Positions 1,547 to 10,554 of a stretch of DNA of 10,826 bases are shown in pieces. A model generated the notes under the pieces. That model was not told the DNA's origin and did no database searches. It saw only the letters and a list, made by a program, of their open reading frames with translations. Position 1 is the stretch's first letter; the number at the start of each line of letters is the position of its first letter. A program made the position numbers and the translations under genes. Origin of the DNA: a virus (taxonomy: Duplodnaviria; Heunggongvirae; Uroviricota; Caudoviricetes); the IMG/VR virus record IMGVR_UViG_3300012983_002979; one strand, written 5' to 3'.

Positions 1547-2189
1547 CTGTAACAATTATAGGTTCATCTAGCATATATTGTTTTGCAACATATAAAGGAA
1601 AAAAATCTGAGGTATAAAAATTAAAAATATCCCATTGGATATAACACCAAAAAAGAATAACCAAAAGCATCAATGTTATATTTGCCATGGATATATGAAA
1701 ACTCCACAACAAACAAAACAAAAGAGAAAAAATAATCTCAGAGTTAATTATCTTAACTCGAAGATTAGCCTTTTTATCTGATATCTTTTTATCTATCTCC
1801 TTAATAATAAAAAAATCATGGGCATCATTTCGTTTTAACCCCTCATATTTCTCATAAATCCTTAAAATATAGCCATCAAAATCACCAATAAAAACAAGGT
1901 GATTGAAAACTGAAAAGTTTATTTTCTTATGACCATAATTTAAAACCAGAGAAATGATTAGGGCTTGTATTAATTGCAACACTGAAAGCCCTGACAGTAC
2001 TCCCTGTTGAAAATCAAGCACATCCTTAAGGGAAGTTTGATTCATGATATTATATATATCAACATTACCTTTCTGATAAGTCAACATAAAGAAAATTACC
2101 ATGAATAATATCAAAAAACGATGAAGAGGATACTTACAAGTAAGATCCTCAATATATTTCTCTTGGACTTTTTTTGCTAGTTCATCCAT
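1530..2189 (-). CDS. Hypothetical integral membrane protein, ~219 aa, four predicted TM helices (hotspot cargo gene 2)
   Basis: ORF 1530..2222 minus; preferred start is the ATG at 2189-2187 (MDELAKK...), which overlaps the upstream stop as TAATG and has AGGTG 5 nt upstream. Hydrophobic segments FLILFMVIFFMLTY, VLSGLSVLQLIQALIISLVL, IIFSLLFCLLWSF and ITLMLLVILFWCYIQW, with a charged ~60-aa loop between TM2 and TM3. Very AT-rich. Confidence 0.65.
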   Translation of the reverse strand: MDELAKKVQEKYIEDLTCKYPLHRFLILFMVIFFMLTYQKGNVDIYNIMNQTSLKDVLDFQQGVLSGLSVLQLIQALIISLVLNYGHKKINFSVFNHLVFIGDFDGYILRIYEKYEGLKRNDAHDFFIIKEIDKKISDKKANLRVKIINSEIIFSLLFCLLWSFHISMANITLMLLVILFWCYIQWDIFNFYTSDFFPLYVAKQYMLDEPIIVTEGFHE

Positions 2190-3088
2190 TAATACACCTG
2201 TATAAAATATACATCTCCACAATTTGGATCAAAAGCTCCATATTCTATATATGGAGCACCTAAAAACACCATCTCTCTTTCATTCTGAAAATAAGGAAAA
2301 ACCTCTTGAAAATCTTCTTTTGAGGCAAATCTCAGTGTACTTACCGAATTGTTAAAACTGTTTTTCATTTTAGCAGAAAGATATTGCAAATCCATCTCTG
2401 TAACTTTCACTCGATAAATTACAGGGTCACCCAATTTCTTCCTAGTTATAACCCTATGAAAATCATTGGCTTTTGCTCTATTGAACCCAAAAACCTCTGT
2501 GCGATCTGCTGTCAACGATATTTCTAGCGAGCTATCCCCTGAATGATGAGACCTAATAATTGCCAACATTTGATCTATCTCTCTCACAATTGCTCGGTCA
2601 CCATACCGTCGATTAACTGCTGCATCCGGATTTTCCAAAAGTTGCTGATAATCACGAGGTAAAATTTTCTGGCTAGCAATTTGTGCACGTCTAGTCTCTA
2701 CACTTTTACTAATAGTTTCAGCATTTTCAAGACCAGACTGCTGTGCTTCTTTAACTGCATTATTTAGTGCATTTGAAACCCTTTCGACTACTTTTTTTGT
2801 AACATCTTTCTTAGAGAAGAAGTCGATAATATATCCACCTTCTCTAGGGGGCTGTACCAACAGTTCAACATCTTTATAGTAGTCATGATGCATCTTTGCA
2901 TATTTCCAAAGATTACCATGTCTGATGTCAAGATAAGCCCGATCTAAGGCACTTTGCAAATGGCCTAGGCTTTTAGAAAGAGTTCTCAGGGATACTTGGT
3001 GATCAGGTGCAATATCGCCATCAAAATGCAATTCAACAATCGCCACTTCACTTTGCTCCATGTGGAAAAATAAGTCGTTAATGTTCAT
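2189..3088 (-). CDS. Hypothetical protein, 299 aa, no recognisable motif (hotspot cargo gene 1)
   Basis: Long ORF in AT-rich DNA, same orientation as and translationally coupled to the membrane-protein gene. No Walker A, zinc finger or obvious nuclease motif seen by eye. The SD upstream of the ATG at 3088 is weak. Confidence 0.7.
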   Translation of the reverse strand: MNINDLFFHMEQSEVAIVELHFDGDIAPDHQVSLRTLSKSLGHLQSALDRAYLDIRHGNLWKYAKMHHDYYKDVELLVQPPREGGYIIDFFSKKDVTKKVVERVSNALNNAVKEAQQSGLENAETISKSVETRRAQIASQKILPRDYQQLLENPDAAVNRRYGDRAIVREIDQMLAIIRSHHSGDSSLEISLTADRTEVFGFNRAKANDFHRVITRKKLGDPVIYRVKVTEMDLQYLSAKMKNSFNNSVSTLRFASKEDFQEVFPYFQNEREMVFLGAPYIEYGAFDPNCGDVYFIQVY

Positions 3089-5528: not shown

Positions 5529-5807
5529 CGTTGATGGGCTTTTTGTGCTGTTTACTACTGTTTGTTTTTATTAATTTGCCGGGAATGAATAAGAAAAAAC
5601 GATTTGTATTTCACTATAAAAATTACGAATTGCTTTAAGTGGCTTTAAATGACTTTAAGTGGAGATGAACAAAAAACACACAAGCATTGTAAGGCTGCCG
5701 GAACAAATCCCCCCTGTTGCGTCTGCTGAAAATATTCACAAAATAAAGCGCTACCCGAAGCCGGACGGACTTATCCGGTGCTGTATGGACATTAACGAGG
5801 TAGCCCG

Positions 5808-6074
5808 ATGCAAGCTGTTTTTTCTTCCCCGTCTCCCGCCCCTGTGACGCCACTGATGCCGCTGCCGGACATCACGCAGGAGCGTTTTTTACGTCTGCCG
5901 GAAGTGATGCACCTGTGCGGCCTGTCACGCTCGACCATCTATGAACTCATCCGTAAGGGGGAATTTCCGCCGCAGGTGAGTCTTGGCGGTAAAAATGTGG
6001 CCTGGCTGCACTCTGAAGTCACCGCATGGATGGCCGGCCGCATTGCCGGACGCAAACGGGGGTATGACGCATGA
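5808..6074 (+). CDS. vis: Vis/AlpA-family HTH regulator, excision and late-gene control (88 aa)
   Basis: [50 protein letters not shown] matches the AlpA-type HTH pattern. 88 aa from the ATG at 5808 (GAGG 8 nt upstream); an alternative start at 5856 would give ~72 aa. Confidence 0.75.
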
Positions 6075-6108
6075 TGATGCCCGCTCTGCAAAAAGTCCCT
6101 TTTTCTGG

Positions 6109-6138
6109 CTTGCCTTTTTCCGGCATTTGCGGATATAG
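6109..6138 (+). promoter_or_regulatory. Candidate sigma70 promoter (PLE-like) for the immunity/left operon
   Basis: TTGCCT (6109-6114), 18-bp spacer, TATAGT (6133-6138), ~30 bp upstream of the seqA-like element. Pattern match only. Confidence 0.3.
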
Positions 6139-6329
6139 TTTTTCCGCTGTCGCAAAATCGGCAGCCGGGCGTAGGAACCCGTGTAACTCGAAGGCGACAT
6201 ATGACGCGCCATGCGTCTTTTTTTGTGTCGCAATCAACGCCACAGAGCGCCAGATTATGGTGTGGCGTGTGGTTTGCCGTGCAGGTATGATCCTGTTCGC
6301 AATCGCATGTTATGCCACTGAGTCAATGG

Positions 6330-6400
6330 TAGCTCAGGCGGGGCAGCCTCCGGGCTGGCCGGTATTCTTCGAGGCCGGTATTCCTACCCCCGTCTGGGCT
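6330..6400 (+). ncRNA. cI: CI-like immunity RNA region (seqB-like core); boundaries approximate
   Basis: The central segment 6367-6387 (CTTCGAGGCCGGTATTCCTAC) is complementary to the bipartite GTAGGAA...CTCGAAG(G) motifs at 6171-6194 and 6414-6453, as in P4 seqA/seqB/seqC. RNA ends cannot be set from sequence. Confidence 0.35.
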
Positions 6401-6463
6401 ATCGCCATCGAGCGTAGGAACTCCGGCGATAGCAGTTATTTGCTACTCGAAGGAGACTGCCTT

Positions 6464-6661
6464 ATGGCTACAACCCTTACCCCCTCACACCCTGAATTTG
6501 TCTTTGTGTTTGCGGCTGTCCGTCGCGCAGACCGTCATCCCCGTATCTGCATGCTTCGCACCGTCGCCGGTGATGAACGCAGCGCCCGCCGTTCCCTTGT
6601 CCGTGACTATGTGCTCTCCCTTGCTGCCCGTCTGCCGGTGGTGGAGGTGTCCCGTGCGTAA
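6464..6661 (+). CDS. Small protein (65 aa) in the eta-like position; SD overlapped by the seqC-like element
   Basis: ATG at 6464 preceded by AAGGAG (6450-6455). It is in frame with the 196-aa track ORF, whose upstream part spans the cI region and is unlikely to be coding. Stop overlaps the next gene's start region. Confidence 0.45.
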
Positions 6662-6941
6662 TAAAAAAGCCCCTCAGACCGTCTCAGCGCGTCATGACGC
6701 CCGTGAACACCTCAGCATTGAGGCTTACCATAAGCTCAACCGCGCCAGCGCCGTATCCCAGTTTGTTGGGGGTGATTTGATTCACCGTGAACTCTCCGGC
6801 CTGCATCAGCTCTACATTCCGCATATTTTCAGCTACCTGAATGAAGATATTGATTTTGTGCTGAATGAGCTGAAAGCCAAAGGCCTGTGCCGCGATTTTC
6901 TCGCCCAGCAGAAAGACCGGGGAGACAGGACGCATGTTTGA
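6654..6941 (+). CDS. eps: Epsilon-like protein (helper-prophage derepression), 95 aa from the GTG at 6654
   Basis: Frame of track ORF 6498..6941. GTG at 6654 with GGAGG 6 nt upstream gives 95 aa, the length I recall for P4 epsilon; upstream in-frame ATGs lie inside the preceding small gene. Stop overlaps the orf151 start (ATGTTTGA). Start choice is uncertain. Confidence 0.5.
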
Positions 6942-7389
6942 TTTTCCCCAGCCCGGTGAGATTTACCGTTCTGCCGGTTTTCCCGATGTGGCCGTGGTCG
7001 GCATTCTGGAAGACGGTATTCCGTGGGAAATGCCGTACCGCTGCCCGGAAATTGTCTGGAACCCGTACCGCCGTAAATTCAGTATCCTTGTGCGTATCCT
7101 TGGTGACGGGCGCACCACAGACATCCCGCTGGGGCGTTTTCTGCGGGAATTTACCTGTGACTGTCCTGACCTGTTCAGACGCAGCCCCGTAAACCGGCAT
7201 GCGGTACTGAAAGAAATGGCCGGAGACCCGGAATTACAGAAATGGCGGGAGAAATATCTGGATATTTACCCGCAGGACACTGTTCCGGTCAGCCGGGCGG
7301 CACCGGTGGCGCGGGAATGGCGGGAAATCCCCCGCACGGAGCCTGACCCGGAAATCACACCGGATAACAGTTACCGCAATTATCTGTAA
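6934..7389 (+). CDS. Conserved P4-family protein, orf151-like (151 aa)
   Basis: 151-aa ORF with GGAGACAGGA upstream, coupled to the preceding gene. Length and position between epsilon and alpha match P4 orf151. Confidence 0.8.
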   Translation: MFDFPQPGEIYRSAGFPDVAVVGILEDGIPWEMPYRCPEIVWNPYRRKFSILVRILGDGRTTDIPLGRFLREFTCDCPDLFRRSPVNRHAVLKEMAGDPELQKWREKYLDIYPQDTVPVSRAAPVAREWREIPRTEPDPEITPDNSYRNYL

Positions 7390-7859: not shown

Positions 7860-10193
7860 ATGAAAATGAACGTAACCGCCACCGTCAGCCATGCGCTCGG
7901 CCACTGGCCGCGTATTCTCCCGGCGCTGGGGATTCAGGTGCTGAAAAACCGTCATCAGCCCTGTCCGGTCTGTGGCGGGAGTGACCGCTTCCGTTTTGAT
8001 GACAGGGAGGGGCGCGGCACCTGGTACTGCAATCAGTGTGGTGCCGGTGACGGCCTGAAACTGGTTGAAAAGGTGTTTGGTGTTTCCCCGTCCGACGCGG
8101 CCGCAAAGGTGGCTGCCGTGACCGGCAGCCTGCCACCGGCTGACCCGGCAGTGACGACCGCCGCCGTTGCTGAAACAGACGCTGCCCGGAAGAGCGCCGC
8201 CGCACTGGCACAAACCCTGATGGCGAAAACCCGTCCCGGAACCGGTAACGCCTACCTGACCCGCAAGGGCTTTCCCGGCCGGGAATGCCGGATGCTGACC
8301 GGCACACTCAGAGCCGGTGGCGTGAGCTGGCGTGCCGGTGACCTTGTGGTGCCACTGTATGACGACAGCGGCGAACTGGTTAACCTTCAGTTAATCAGTG
8401 CTGACGGCCGTAAGCGCACCCTGAAAGGCGGACAGGTCAGGGGCACCTGTCACACCCTTGAAGGACAGAATCAGGCCGGAAAACGTCTGTGGATAGCGGA
8501 GGGATACGCGACCGCACTTACCGTACATCACCTGACCGGTGAAACGGTGATGGTGGCGCTTTCTTCCGTGAACCTCCTTTCTCTGGCCAGCCTTGCCCGG
8601 CAGAAGCATCCGGCCTGTCAGATTGTCCTTGCCGCAGACCGTGACCTCAGCGGTGACGGCCAGAAAAAAGCCGCCGCAGCCGCAGATGCGTGTGAAGGTG
8701 TTGTTGCCCTGCCGCCGGTCTTCGGTGACTGGAATGATGCCTTCACGCAGTACGGCGGGGAGGTCACCCGTAAGGCCATTTACGATGCCATCCGGCCACC
8801 GGCTGAAAGCCCGTTCGACACCATGAGCGAAGCAGAGTTTTCCGCCATGAGTACCAGCGAAAAGGCCATGCGTATCTATGAGCATTACGGCGAGGCGCTC
8901 GCGGTCGATGCCAACGGCCAGCTTCTGTCCCGCTATGAAAATGGTGTCTGGAAGGTGCTGCCGCCACAGGACTTTGCCCGGGATGTGGCCGGGCTGTTTC
9001 AGCGTCTGCGCGCGCCGTTCTCCTCCGGGAAGGTGGCCTCCGTGGTGGACACCCTGAAGCTGATTATTCCGCAGCAGGAAGCCCCCTCCCGCCGCCTGAT
9101 TGGCTTTCGTAACGGTGTGCTCGACACGCAGAACGGCACGTTCCACCCGCACAGTCCGTCACACTGGATGCGCACCCTGTGCGATGTGGATTTCACCCCG
9201 CCGGTGGACGGTGAAACGCTGGAAACCCACGCCCCCGCGTTCTGGCGCTGGCTTGACCGTGCCGCCGGTGGCCGTGCGGAAAAACGCGACGTGATTCTGG
9301 CCGCACTGTTTATGGTGCTGGCAAACCGCTACGACTGGCAGCTCTTTCTGGAGGTGACCGGTCCCGGCGGCAGCGGCAAAAGTATCATGGCCGAAATAGC
9401 CACCCTGCTGGCCGGGGAGGATAACGCCACGTCGGCCACCATCGAGACGCTGGAATCCCCGCGTGAACGTGCCGCGTTAACTGGCTTCTCACTGATACGC
9501 CTGCCGGACCAGGAAAAATGGAGCGGCGACGGTGCCGGACTCAAGGCCATCACCGGCGGCGATGCGGTGTCCGTGGACCCGAAATACCGGGATGCGTACT
9601 CCACGCATATCCCGGCGGTGATTCTGGCCGTGAACAATAACCCGATGCGCTTCACCGACCGCAGCGGCGGCGTGTCACGCCGGCGGGTGATTATTCACTT
9701 CCCGGAACAGATAGCCCCGCAGGAGCGCGACCCGCAGCTTAAGGACAAAATCACCCGCGAGCTGGCGGTCATCGTGCGTCACCTGATGCAGAAATTCAGC
9801 GACCCGATGCTCGCCCGGTCACTGCTTCAGTCCCAGCAGAACTCAGACGAGGCACTGAACATCAAACGGGATGCCGACCCGACGTTTGATTTTATCGGCT
9901 ATCTGGAAACCCTGCCGCAGACCAGCGGCATGTATATGGGGAACGCCAGTATCATCCCGCGTAATTACCGTAAATACCTCTATCACGCCTATCTGGCCTA
10001 CATGGAGGCAAACGGCTACCGGAATGTACTCAGTCTGAAAATGTTCGGGCTGGGGCTGCCGGTGATGCTGAAGGAATACGGACTGAATTACGAGAAGCGC
10101 CATACCAAACAGGGGATACAGACCAACCTGACGCTGAAAGAGGAAAGCTACGGCGACTGGCTGCCAAAATGTGACGACCCTGCAACAACCTGA
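7860..10193 (+). CDS. alpha: Alpha: bifunctional primase-helicase replication protein (777 aa)
   Basis: N-terminal zinc-binding primase motif (CPVCGGSDRFRFDD...WYCNQCG), TOPRIM-like region (LWIAEGYATALT...LAADRD), Walker A (VTGPGGSGKS) in a D5-like helicase domain. 777 aa as in P4 alpha. Confidence 0.95.
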   Translation: MKMNVTATVSHALGHWPRILPALGIQVLKNRHQPCPVCGGSDRFRFDDREGRGTWYCNQCGAGDGLKLVEKVFGVSPSDAAAKVAAVTGSLPPADPAVTTAAVAETDAARKSAAALAQTLMAKTRPGTGNAYLTRKGFPGRECRMLTGTLRAGGVSWRAGDLVVPLYDDSGELVNLQLISADGRKRTLKGGQVRGTCHTLEGQNQAGKRLWIAEGYATALTVHHLTGETVMVALSSVNLLSLASLARQKHPACQIVLAADRDLSGDGQKKAAAAADACEGVVALPPVFGDWNDAFTQYGGEVTRKAIYDAIRPPAESPFDTMSEAEFSAMSTSEKAMRIYEHYGEALAVDANGQLLSRYENGVWKVLPPQDFARDVAGLFQRLRAPFSSGKVASVVDTLKLIIPQQEAPSRRLIGFRNGVLDTQNGTFHPHSPSHWMRTLCDVDFTPPVDGETLETHAPAFWRWLDRAAGGRAEKRDVILAALFMVLANRYDWQLFLEVTGPGGSGKSIMAEIATLLAGEDNATSATIETLESPRERAALTGFSLIRLPDQEKWSGDGAGLKAITGGDAVSVDPKYRDAYSTHIPAVILAVNNNPMRFTDRSGGVSRRRVIIHFPEQIAPQERDPQLKDKITRELAVIVRHLMQKFSDPMLARSLLQSQQNSDEALNIKRDADPTFDFIGYLETLPQTSGMYMGNASIIPRNYRKYLYHAYLAYMEANGYRNVLSLKMFGLGLPVMLKEYGLNYEKRHTKQGIQTNLTLKEESYGDWLPKCDDPATT

Positions 10194-10234: not shown

Positions 10235-10252
10235 ATCCCTGAATTCCCCGAA

Positions 10253-10554
10253 GGTGAACAATCCACTGTTCACCCTTCACCGTATATTCACCCGTTATCA
10301 CACTGAAATTAAAAGAGAAAAACGAAAGGTGAACAGTGTGAACAATCAAATCAAAAAAAACTTTTTTCTCCCTGTGTGATTTTCAGTACGGGGGATTAAT
10401 CACCGGTATGAGTCACACCGGCAGAATGCCGGAGGTGAAGAATCGAATGTTCACCCTTCACCCATTATTCACCACCTATCCAACTGAAATAAAAGGAGAA
10501 AACAGAAAGGTGAACAGTGTGAACAGTTCTTTCGAAAAAAAATTTTTTTCCTGT
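10253..10554. repeat. crr-like cis replication region: two ~120-bp direct repeats (10253-10375 and 10433-10554) separated by ~57 bp, each with TGTTCACC/GGTGAACA iterons
   Basis: The two units align along their length (GGTGAACAATCCACTGTTCACCCTTCACC...GAAAGGTGAACAGTGTGAACA...CCTGT versus GGTGAAGAATCGAATGTTCACCCTTCACC...GAAAGGTGAACAGTGTGAACA...CCTGT). P4 crr is two 120-bp direct repeats ~60 bp apart carrying the alpha-binding octamer. Confidence 0.6.

Follow-up and report, generated by a model that had tools for sequence, protein, structure and literature searches.

The locus directly downstream of the vis gene in the 10,826-nt stretch of DNA analysed here (in the following, the window) is, with high confidence, the immunity switch by which a satellite prophage of the P4 family maintains lysogeny. 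It is the known P4 RNA immunity switch with a different lock-and-key sequence and not a discovery; every testable defining feature of P4/P1-type antisense immunity was present. We base this on homology, RNA family, RNA structure, complementarity, covariation, the overlap with a Shine-Dalgarno (SD) sequence and the coding status of kil. An earlier note on this DNA had already proposed the P4 CI-RNA mechanism, and this reading is supported by an identity to P4 of 93.4%, by matches to the Rfam families C4 and isrK, and by compensatory changes in the base pairs.

The element and its genomic setting

The window is a P4-like satellite prophage of E. coli adjoining ssrA. The 3′ end of this tmRNA gene covers positions 1–120 (Rfam, 99.5 bits) and forms the integration site of the element, whereas P4 integrates at a leucine tRNA gene. 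A tyrosine integrase gene is located at 304–1497. Two overlapping ORFs of 230 and 299 amino acids (1530–2222 and 2189–3088, minus strand) occupy the variable hotspot between int and psu. No match for them was found in Pfam or PADLOC, and none of significance in NCBIfam; the only hits were PHROG 31922 and 28486 (function unknown). P4-like satellites often have defence genes in the int-psu hotspot (PMC9122126), and a strain with an identical immunity region carries other genes there. After the hotspot ORFs, psu, delta and sid are encoded on the minus strand.

The AlpA-family gene vis (5808–6074, plus strand; Pfam Phage_AlpA, E 7e-21) is situated directly upstream of the immunity region and is the orthologue of P4 ORF88, annotated as “excisionase and transcriptional regulator.” The next gene that would be controlled by the switch is epsilon, coding for the helper derepression protein (6654–6941, plus strand; Pfam Derepression PF25738, E 8e-51; P4 annotation), and downstream of it follow orf151, a DUF5375 gene and the gene of a 777-aa P4-type primase, in that order and on the plus strand. 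Two 120-nt direct repeats, 81% identical (10248–10367 and 10429–10548), correspond to P4 crr, the cis-required replication region. Thus, the core set of P4-like satellites (int, psu, delta, sid, alpA/vis, epsilon, alpha primase) is complete here, and the RefSeq annotation of an identical locus agrees. In a phage DNA search, the 93.4% identity was found between positions 5800–6700 and positions 8129–9038 of phage P4 (NC_001609; ORF88, “cI,” epsilon), and the gene order vis-PLE-cI-epsilon-orf151-orf106-alpha is kept as in P4.

Many P4-like islands are degraded, and one strain with the identical region has an integrase broken by IS1. The window could, therefore, represent a decayed cryptic prophage in which the immunity module is a non-functional relic. 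However, we consider this improbable: int, psu, delta, sid, vis, kil, epsilon, orf151, orf106, alpha and crr are intact in the window, all six recognition segments described below are perfectly matched, and the search for regions of at least 99% identity gave 142 E. coli records; complete E. coli genomes with such a region number more than 130.

Promoter, leader RNA and terminator

A sigma-70 promoter of the PLE type was located at 6110–6139 on the plus strand, with the −35 box TTGCCT (6110–6115), an 18-nt spacer and the −10 box TATAGT (6134–6139). It is the sole promoter-like site in 5750–7000. Its −10 box matches the “consensus −10” annotated in the P4 record X02534, and TATAGT is kept in the alignment of relatives. 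From its position, we infer a transcription start near 6146, which is also where the isrK match begins.

The seqA/IsrK-type leader RNA (6146–6223, plus strand) matched the Rfam family isrK (RF01394) over the full length of the model with 69.4 bits (gathering 50; E 1.5e-13). Its layout comprises hairpin 1 (6146–6165), hairpin 2 with the recognition segment a1 in the loop, the single-stranded segment b1, and an intrinsic terminator. Variability of the leader among relatives is low (0.098); folded alone, the leader is no better than its shuffles (z −1.27). The Rho-independent terminator (GACGCGCCATGCGTC followed by T7; 6203–6224, stem 6203–6217, plus strand) ends the leader, is part of the isrK model and is conserved in the alignment of relatives. 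Stem and T-run were the only terminator-like site found nearby. IsrK-like RNAs have been equated with seqA of P4 (PMC3632133, PMC4825925), and the pair of families RF01695 C4 and RF01394 isrK corresponds to the CI RNA and seqA of the P4 literature (PMC3632133).

According to the earlier note, both flanking copies of the recognition motifs overlap the SD sequences of small ORFs. This stood for the downstream copy, where b2 (6446–6453) overlaps AAGGAG (6450–6455) in front of ATG 6464, and did not stand for the upstream copy with ATG 6201. We rejected a small ORF starting at 6201, as this ATG is located directly 5′ of the terminator stem 6203–6217, is unconserved and shows no coding signal. It is absent in 59 of 101 homologues with an exact b1, the consensus at the site being GGCGACACCAGACGCG, and variability by codon position in its frame (0.207/0.230/0.184) gave no codon-position signal. 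The a and b targets form two sites of two parts each; of these, the upstream one is tied to the intrinsic terminator and not to a translated small ORF.

The CI RNA

A C4/CI antisense RNA was detected at 6322–6409 on the plus strand (Rfam RF01695 C4, 74.4 bits, gathering 45, model positions 1–87 of 87, E 2e-13). Folding and duplex prediction, named as a check in the earlier note, were both run. The 88-nt C4 match folds with a minimum free energy of −48 kcal/mol (z −4.69), with b′ placed in a hairpin loop and a′ unpaired in a bulge, and the cognate duplexes reach −21.8 kcal/mol with seqA and −23.4 kcal/mol with seqC.

The predicted mature CI RNA (6328–6407, plus strand) consists of a 17-bp tRNA-acceptor-like stem, two hairpins and a 3′ GCCA tail. 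The closing stem pairs 6328–6344 with 6387–6403 and is followed by GCCA at 6404–6407. We take the mature ends to be at about 6328 and 6406/7, mapped from the coordinates of the P4 CI RNA. The RNA would, therefore, measure 79–80 nt, longer than the approximately 70 nt given in the earlier note. In P4/P1-type systems, the mature RNA has about 77–80 nt, RNase P generating the 5′ end and trimming the 3′ end. A substrate of RNase P is expected to carry such a tRNA-like feature, an acceptor-like stem followed by GCCA, and PMC5499578 includes the CI RNA in its list of RNase P substrates.

Recognition motifs

All motif sites given in the earlier note proved exact: GTAGGAA starts at 6171 and 6414, CTCGAAGG at 6187 and 6446, CTTCGAG at 6367 and TTCCTAC at 6381. 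On the plus strand, they make up six segments. Upstream, a1 (GTAGGAA, 6171–6177) is the target of a′ and b1 (CTCGAAGG, 6187–6194) that of b′. Within the CI RNA, b′ (TCTTCGAG, 6366–6373) forms the loop of hairpin 2 and has b1 and b2 as partners, while a′ (TTCCTAC, 6381–6387) lies in the single-stranded bulge and has a1 and a2 as partners. The downstream target, seqC, comprises a2 (GTAGGAA, 6414–6420) and b2 (CTCGAAGG, 6446–6453, with the predicted duplex extending to 6457). For b2, a duplex of −14.1 kcal/mol with nine contiguous pairs plus two further pairs was predicted.

The 7-mers are short, and further copies occur in the window, GTAGGAA at 78 inside the tmRNA and CTCGAAG at 1757; we take the copy at 78 as a coincidence. 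The arrangement was compared with 5000 dinucleotide-preserving shuffles of 6140–6470. One 7-mer occurring twice with its complement in between was found in 97 of the 5000 shuffles, and two separate triples of this kind in 2 of 5000. A chance arrangement, to which the shortness of the motifs and the copy in the tmRNA might point, has a negligible probability in view of these counts and of the Rfam matches, and is refuted by the covariation described below. The complementary triple motif is real.

The first gene, kil

The first translated gene after PLE is an ORF of 65 amino acids (6464–6661, plus strand), which also contains a nested in-frame ATG at 6551. Residues 12–59 matched the NCBIfam Icd-like domain NF033153 (E 1.6e-21). 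Variability among relatives was 0.142, 0.138 and 0.303 at the first, second and third codon positions, which is a third-position excess. An ORF of 63–67 amino acids is present in 113 of 116 relatives, and GGAG follows b2 in nearly all of them. We conclude that 6464–6661 is a real coding gene, the counterpart of P4 kil.

Covariation of the recognition pairs in relatives

Relatives were gathered with a search pattern in which the stems flanking a′ and b′ were fixed and the 8 + 4 recognition bases left free. The survey covers the close P4 clade, in which hairpin 2 is invariant by construction of the pattern, and it yielded 33 loci in genomes from across the Enterobacterales, together with at least 119 viral contigs. 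In 109 distinct loci, each RNA was compared with its own flanks. A complement of a′ was present on the upstream side of 107 loci and on the downstream side of all 109; for b′, the corresponding numbers were 93 and 100, and most of the remaining sites pair via G-U. Foreign alleles matched in about 1% of the tests.

In an alignment of 100 sequences, standard pairs between seqA and seqB occupy 99.1% of cells, with compensatory changes at 9 of 15 pairs; between seqB and seqC they occupy 99.8%, with compensatory changes at 10 of 15. Broken down by segment, a1 is paired in 99.6% of cells (compensatory at 3/7 pairs), b1 in 98.7% (6/8), a2 in 100% and b2 in 99.6% (7/8). None of 500 shuffles reached the observed values, and sliding the partner by one to three columns reduced pairing to 34–55%. 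The CI RNA’s own helices were paired in 100% of 2700 cells, and eight of their pairs showed compensatory changes.

This covariation also bears on the function of the leader. In Salmonella, the IsrK/STnc1160 RNA of Gifsy-1 fits the same covariance model full-length, and a processed small RNA is found downstream of it as well (PMC4825925). IsrK is reported to be a trans-activator of the translation of its own read-through isoform and to control an antirepressor and AntQ. The leader 6146–6223 might act likewise, its short terminated transcript binding the long read-through isoform in trans and activating translation of the genes downstream, with the C4-like RNA being secondary. The isrK match here indeed spans the full model, the trans mode has been shown in Salmonella and structural homology to P4 seqA has been noted (PMC4825925), and a requirement for the IsrK-like elements of P4-like prophages has been reported in S. 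Typhi (PMC3632133). However, a1 and b1 strictly covary with the CI RNA of the same locus, as a CI target would; the locus is linked by synteny and 93% identity to P4, for which repression by the CI RNA is described; and no antirepressor genes of the orf45/anrP type are found downstream. We, therefore, regard an IsrK-like mode as unlikely and interpret the leader as a target covarying with the CI RNA.

In the surveyed loci, the 8-nt b′ and 4-nt a′ alleles occur in at least 25 combinations, built from at least three a alleles and more than 12 b alleles. The a alleles CCTA, TCCA and CTCA are freely joined to many b alleles, and this free combination suggests a modular exchange of specificity. The combination of the window, TCTTCGAG/CCTA, was seen ten times. 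Recognition alleles sort P4-like satellites into predicted immunity groups, which could explain which of them co-reside in one cell. The CI RNA and immunity go unmentioned in a large published survey of P4-like elements (PMC8628076), and the diversity of a/b alleles is not discussed there.

The long open reading frame

The immunity region is spanned by an open frame of 196 codons (6071–6661, plus strand), which covers PLE, the leader, the CI RNA, seqC and kil and is annotated in RefSeq as a single “Icd-like” CDS. A protein repressor encoded in this region, as in the historical P4 “cI/Ash” and here in the form of the 196-aa CDS, would make the motifs incidental to coding. No stop codon interrupts the frame in 92 of 99 relatives, compared with averages of 5.1 and 2.7 stops in the two alternative frames, and indels preserve the register: spacer lengths of 53, 62, 65, 71, 83, 89, 101 and 110 nt are in the same register, almost all of them being equal modulo 3. 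In addition, the translated sequence upstream of kil is hit by Pfam PF10554 Phage_ASH (E 4e-23) and by PHROG 6928 (“transcriptional repressor”).

However, the sequence upstream of 6464 shows no excess of variability at the third codon position (0.186/0.198/0.178), unlike kil. The variable positions are the RNA recognition bases, which covary as base pairs. The start of the frame overlaps the vis stop codon (ATGA, 6071–6074), and in 104 of 108 relatives both the frame and its first ATG precede the PLE +1; consequently, transcripts from PLE cannot encode the protein. The Icd-like domain, the only curated one, is located wholly inside kil. Any conserved RNA can be expected to give family matches such as Phage_ASH and PHROG 6928 once it is translated in silico, and as a constrained protein the matched translation was not corroborated, since it has no codon signature and its variation is explained by RNA pairing; all that is conserved is that the frame stays open. 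Further, immunity of P4 itself is conferred by a processed RNA that is not translated (PMC4825925). A protein repressor is thus very improbable. Protein coding was dropped as the source of the motifs because of the missing codon-position signal and the covariation of RNA pairs, and we conclude that the motifs are RNA recognition elements and not protein-coding features.

As the Icd-like domain is confined to 6464–6661, the RefSeq CDS probably starts 131 codons too early. The N-terminal two thirds of what RefSeq (6071–6661), Phage_ASH and PHROG 6928 present as protein would be an in-silico translation of a structured RNA. Nevertheless, some translation of the region may take place under some conditions, and the open frame may reflect translation from late transcripts initiated upstream. 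P4 also has a long ORF, “orf199,” and its late-promoter transcripts are insensitive to immunity. A joint explanation, which we offer tentatively, is that the RNA module is embedded in a frame, corresponding to the long one of P4, which selection holds open and in register over widely differing spacers without constraint on the peptide. Ribosomes on late-promoter transcripts might sweep seqA, cI and seqC, making late transcription insensitive to the CI RNA, while a and b modules might be reshuffled among satellites, giving rise to many heteroimmune classes.

Comparison with P4 and predicted immunity specificity

The locus is orthologous to that of P4, with which it shares gene order, promoter, leader terminator, CI RNA scaffold and bipartite sites, including the overlap of seqC with the kil ribosome-binding site. 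The recognition sequences differ. The a pair is GTGAGAA/TTCTCAC in P4 and GTAGGAA/TTCCTAC in the window; the b pair is TTCACAGG/CCTGTGAA in P4 and CTCGAAGG/TCTTCGAG in the window. Apart from these three motif sets, a 9-nt indel in the spacer and a divergent spacer stretch, the two sequences are almost identical. In the alignment with P4, the differences in a1/b1, b′/a′ and a2/b2 are mutually compensatory. Cross-pairings between window and P4 reached −10.5 to −15.4 kcal/mol, and the cognate duplexes are about twice as stable. Since the recognition bases differ and compensate at all three sites and the cross-pairings are weaker, the element is predicted from its sequence to be heteroimmune to P4. 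In the P4 system, the names t1/t4/timm, eta and orf199 are in use, and heteroimmunity has been the subject of work on phiR73.

Proposed mechanism

In P4, the CI RNA is processed from an untranslated transcript and pairs with seqA and seqC, which leads to premature termination (PMC4825925); for this RNA-dependent termination, which uses a Rho-dependent site in or after kil and silences the replication genes, Sabbattini 1995 and Briani 2000 are cited (in PMC4825925). By analogy with the P4 literature, the following sequence of events would apply to the window, including expression of the region, processing by RNase P and PNPase, and Rho- or CI-dependent termination. The constitutive promoter PLE (6110–6139) would transcribe the untranslated leader, and transcripts reading through would be cut at the tRNA-like stem with its 3′ GCCA to give a stable CI RNA of about 79–80 nt. 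This RNA would expose b′ in the hairpin loop and a′ in the bulge, which would pair with a1/b1 in seqA, beside the intrinsic terminator, and with a2/b2 in seqC. As the b2 duplex would cover the SD of kil (ATG 6464), translation of kil would be blocked, transcription would become uncoupled from it and would stop before epsilon, orf151 and the alpha primase gene. Replication and helper derepression would thereby be kept off. Pairing at seqA would be expected to favour termination upstream of cI, and the CI RNA would in this way be autoregulatory.

Related systems

The same RNA family, RF01695, controls the immI region (c4, icd, ant) of P1 and P7. There, too, a processed RNA uses a′ and b′ to bind two sites on its upstream side and two on its downstream side, the ribosome-binding site of icd is covered by b2, and the first gene is Icd-like. 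In contrast, no DNA similarity to P1 was detectable in the phage search, and the downstream genes are epsilon, orf151 and alpha primase here and the Ant antirepressor gene there. The host element is a satellite and not a plasmid prophage as in P1/P7. P1 and P7 differ from each other in c4 specificity.

The anti-immunity CB RNA-icd-antA loci of N15, phiKO2 and PY54 are a further counterpart. CI RNA and kil showed weak DNA similarity (about 79%) to phiKO2, PY54 and Klebsiella N15-like phages, at a query coverage of 12–24%. Control by a processed RNA has been cited for N15-type loci (PMC7567579, ref 53). N15, phiKO2 and PY54 are, however, linear plasmid prophages, and their RNA controls an antirepressor operon.

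Further observations on individual loci

In two of the surveyed loci (L093, 8608–8933, and L039, 7067–7392), the upstream seqA is mismatched to the locus’s own CI RNA while seqC is matched. Both resemble products of recombination, the breakpoint lying between seqA and cI.

Only four genomes were informative for elements residing together. Co-resident elements with different a′ and b′ alleles were present in two of the four (L015/L021 in Citrobacter youngae and L022/L034 in Enterobacter intestinihominis), and the same allele was found on separate contigs in the other two, both IMG genomes (L039/L086 and L115/L123). In L086, two copies are 2.6 kb apart.

P4-type immunity regions were also found on contigs of a “Clostridiales bacterium” MAG (L014) and of “Vagococcus sp.” (L018); these are probably contamination or mis-binned Enterobacterales DNA.

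A C4-family RNA (77.5 bits) was detected on an IncI-type E. coli plasmid (NZ_CP173488.1; L156, 2390–2645), where RefSeq annotates it as “ash family protein.” Matching a1/b1 segments are present upstream of it and a2/b2 downstream, with b2 abutting GGAG and the ATG of traA. About 890 places in E. coli plasmids match this stretch.
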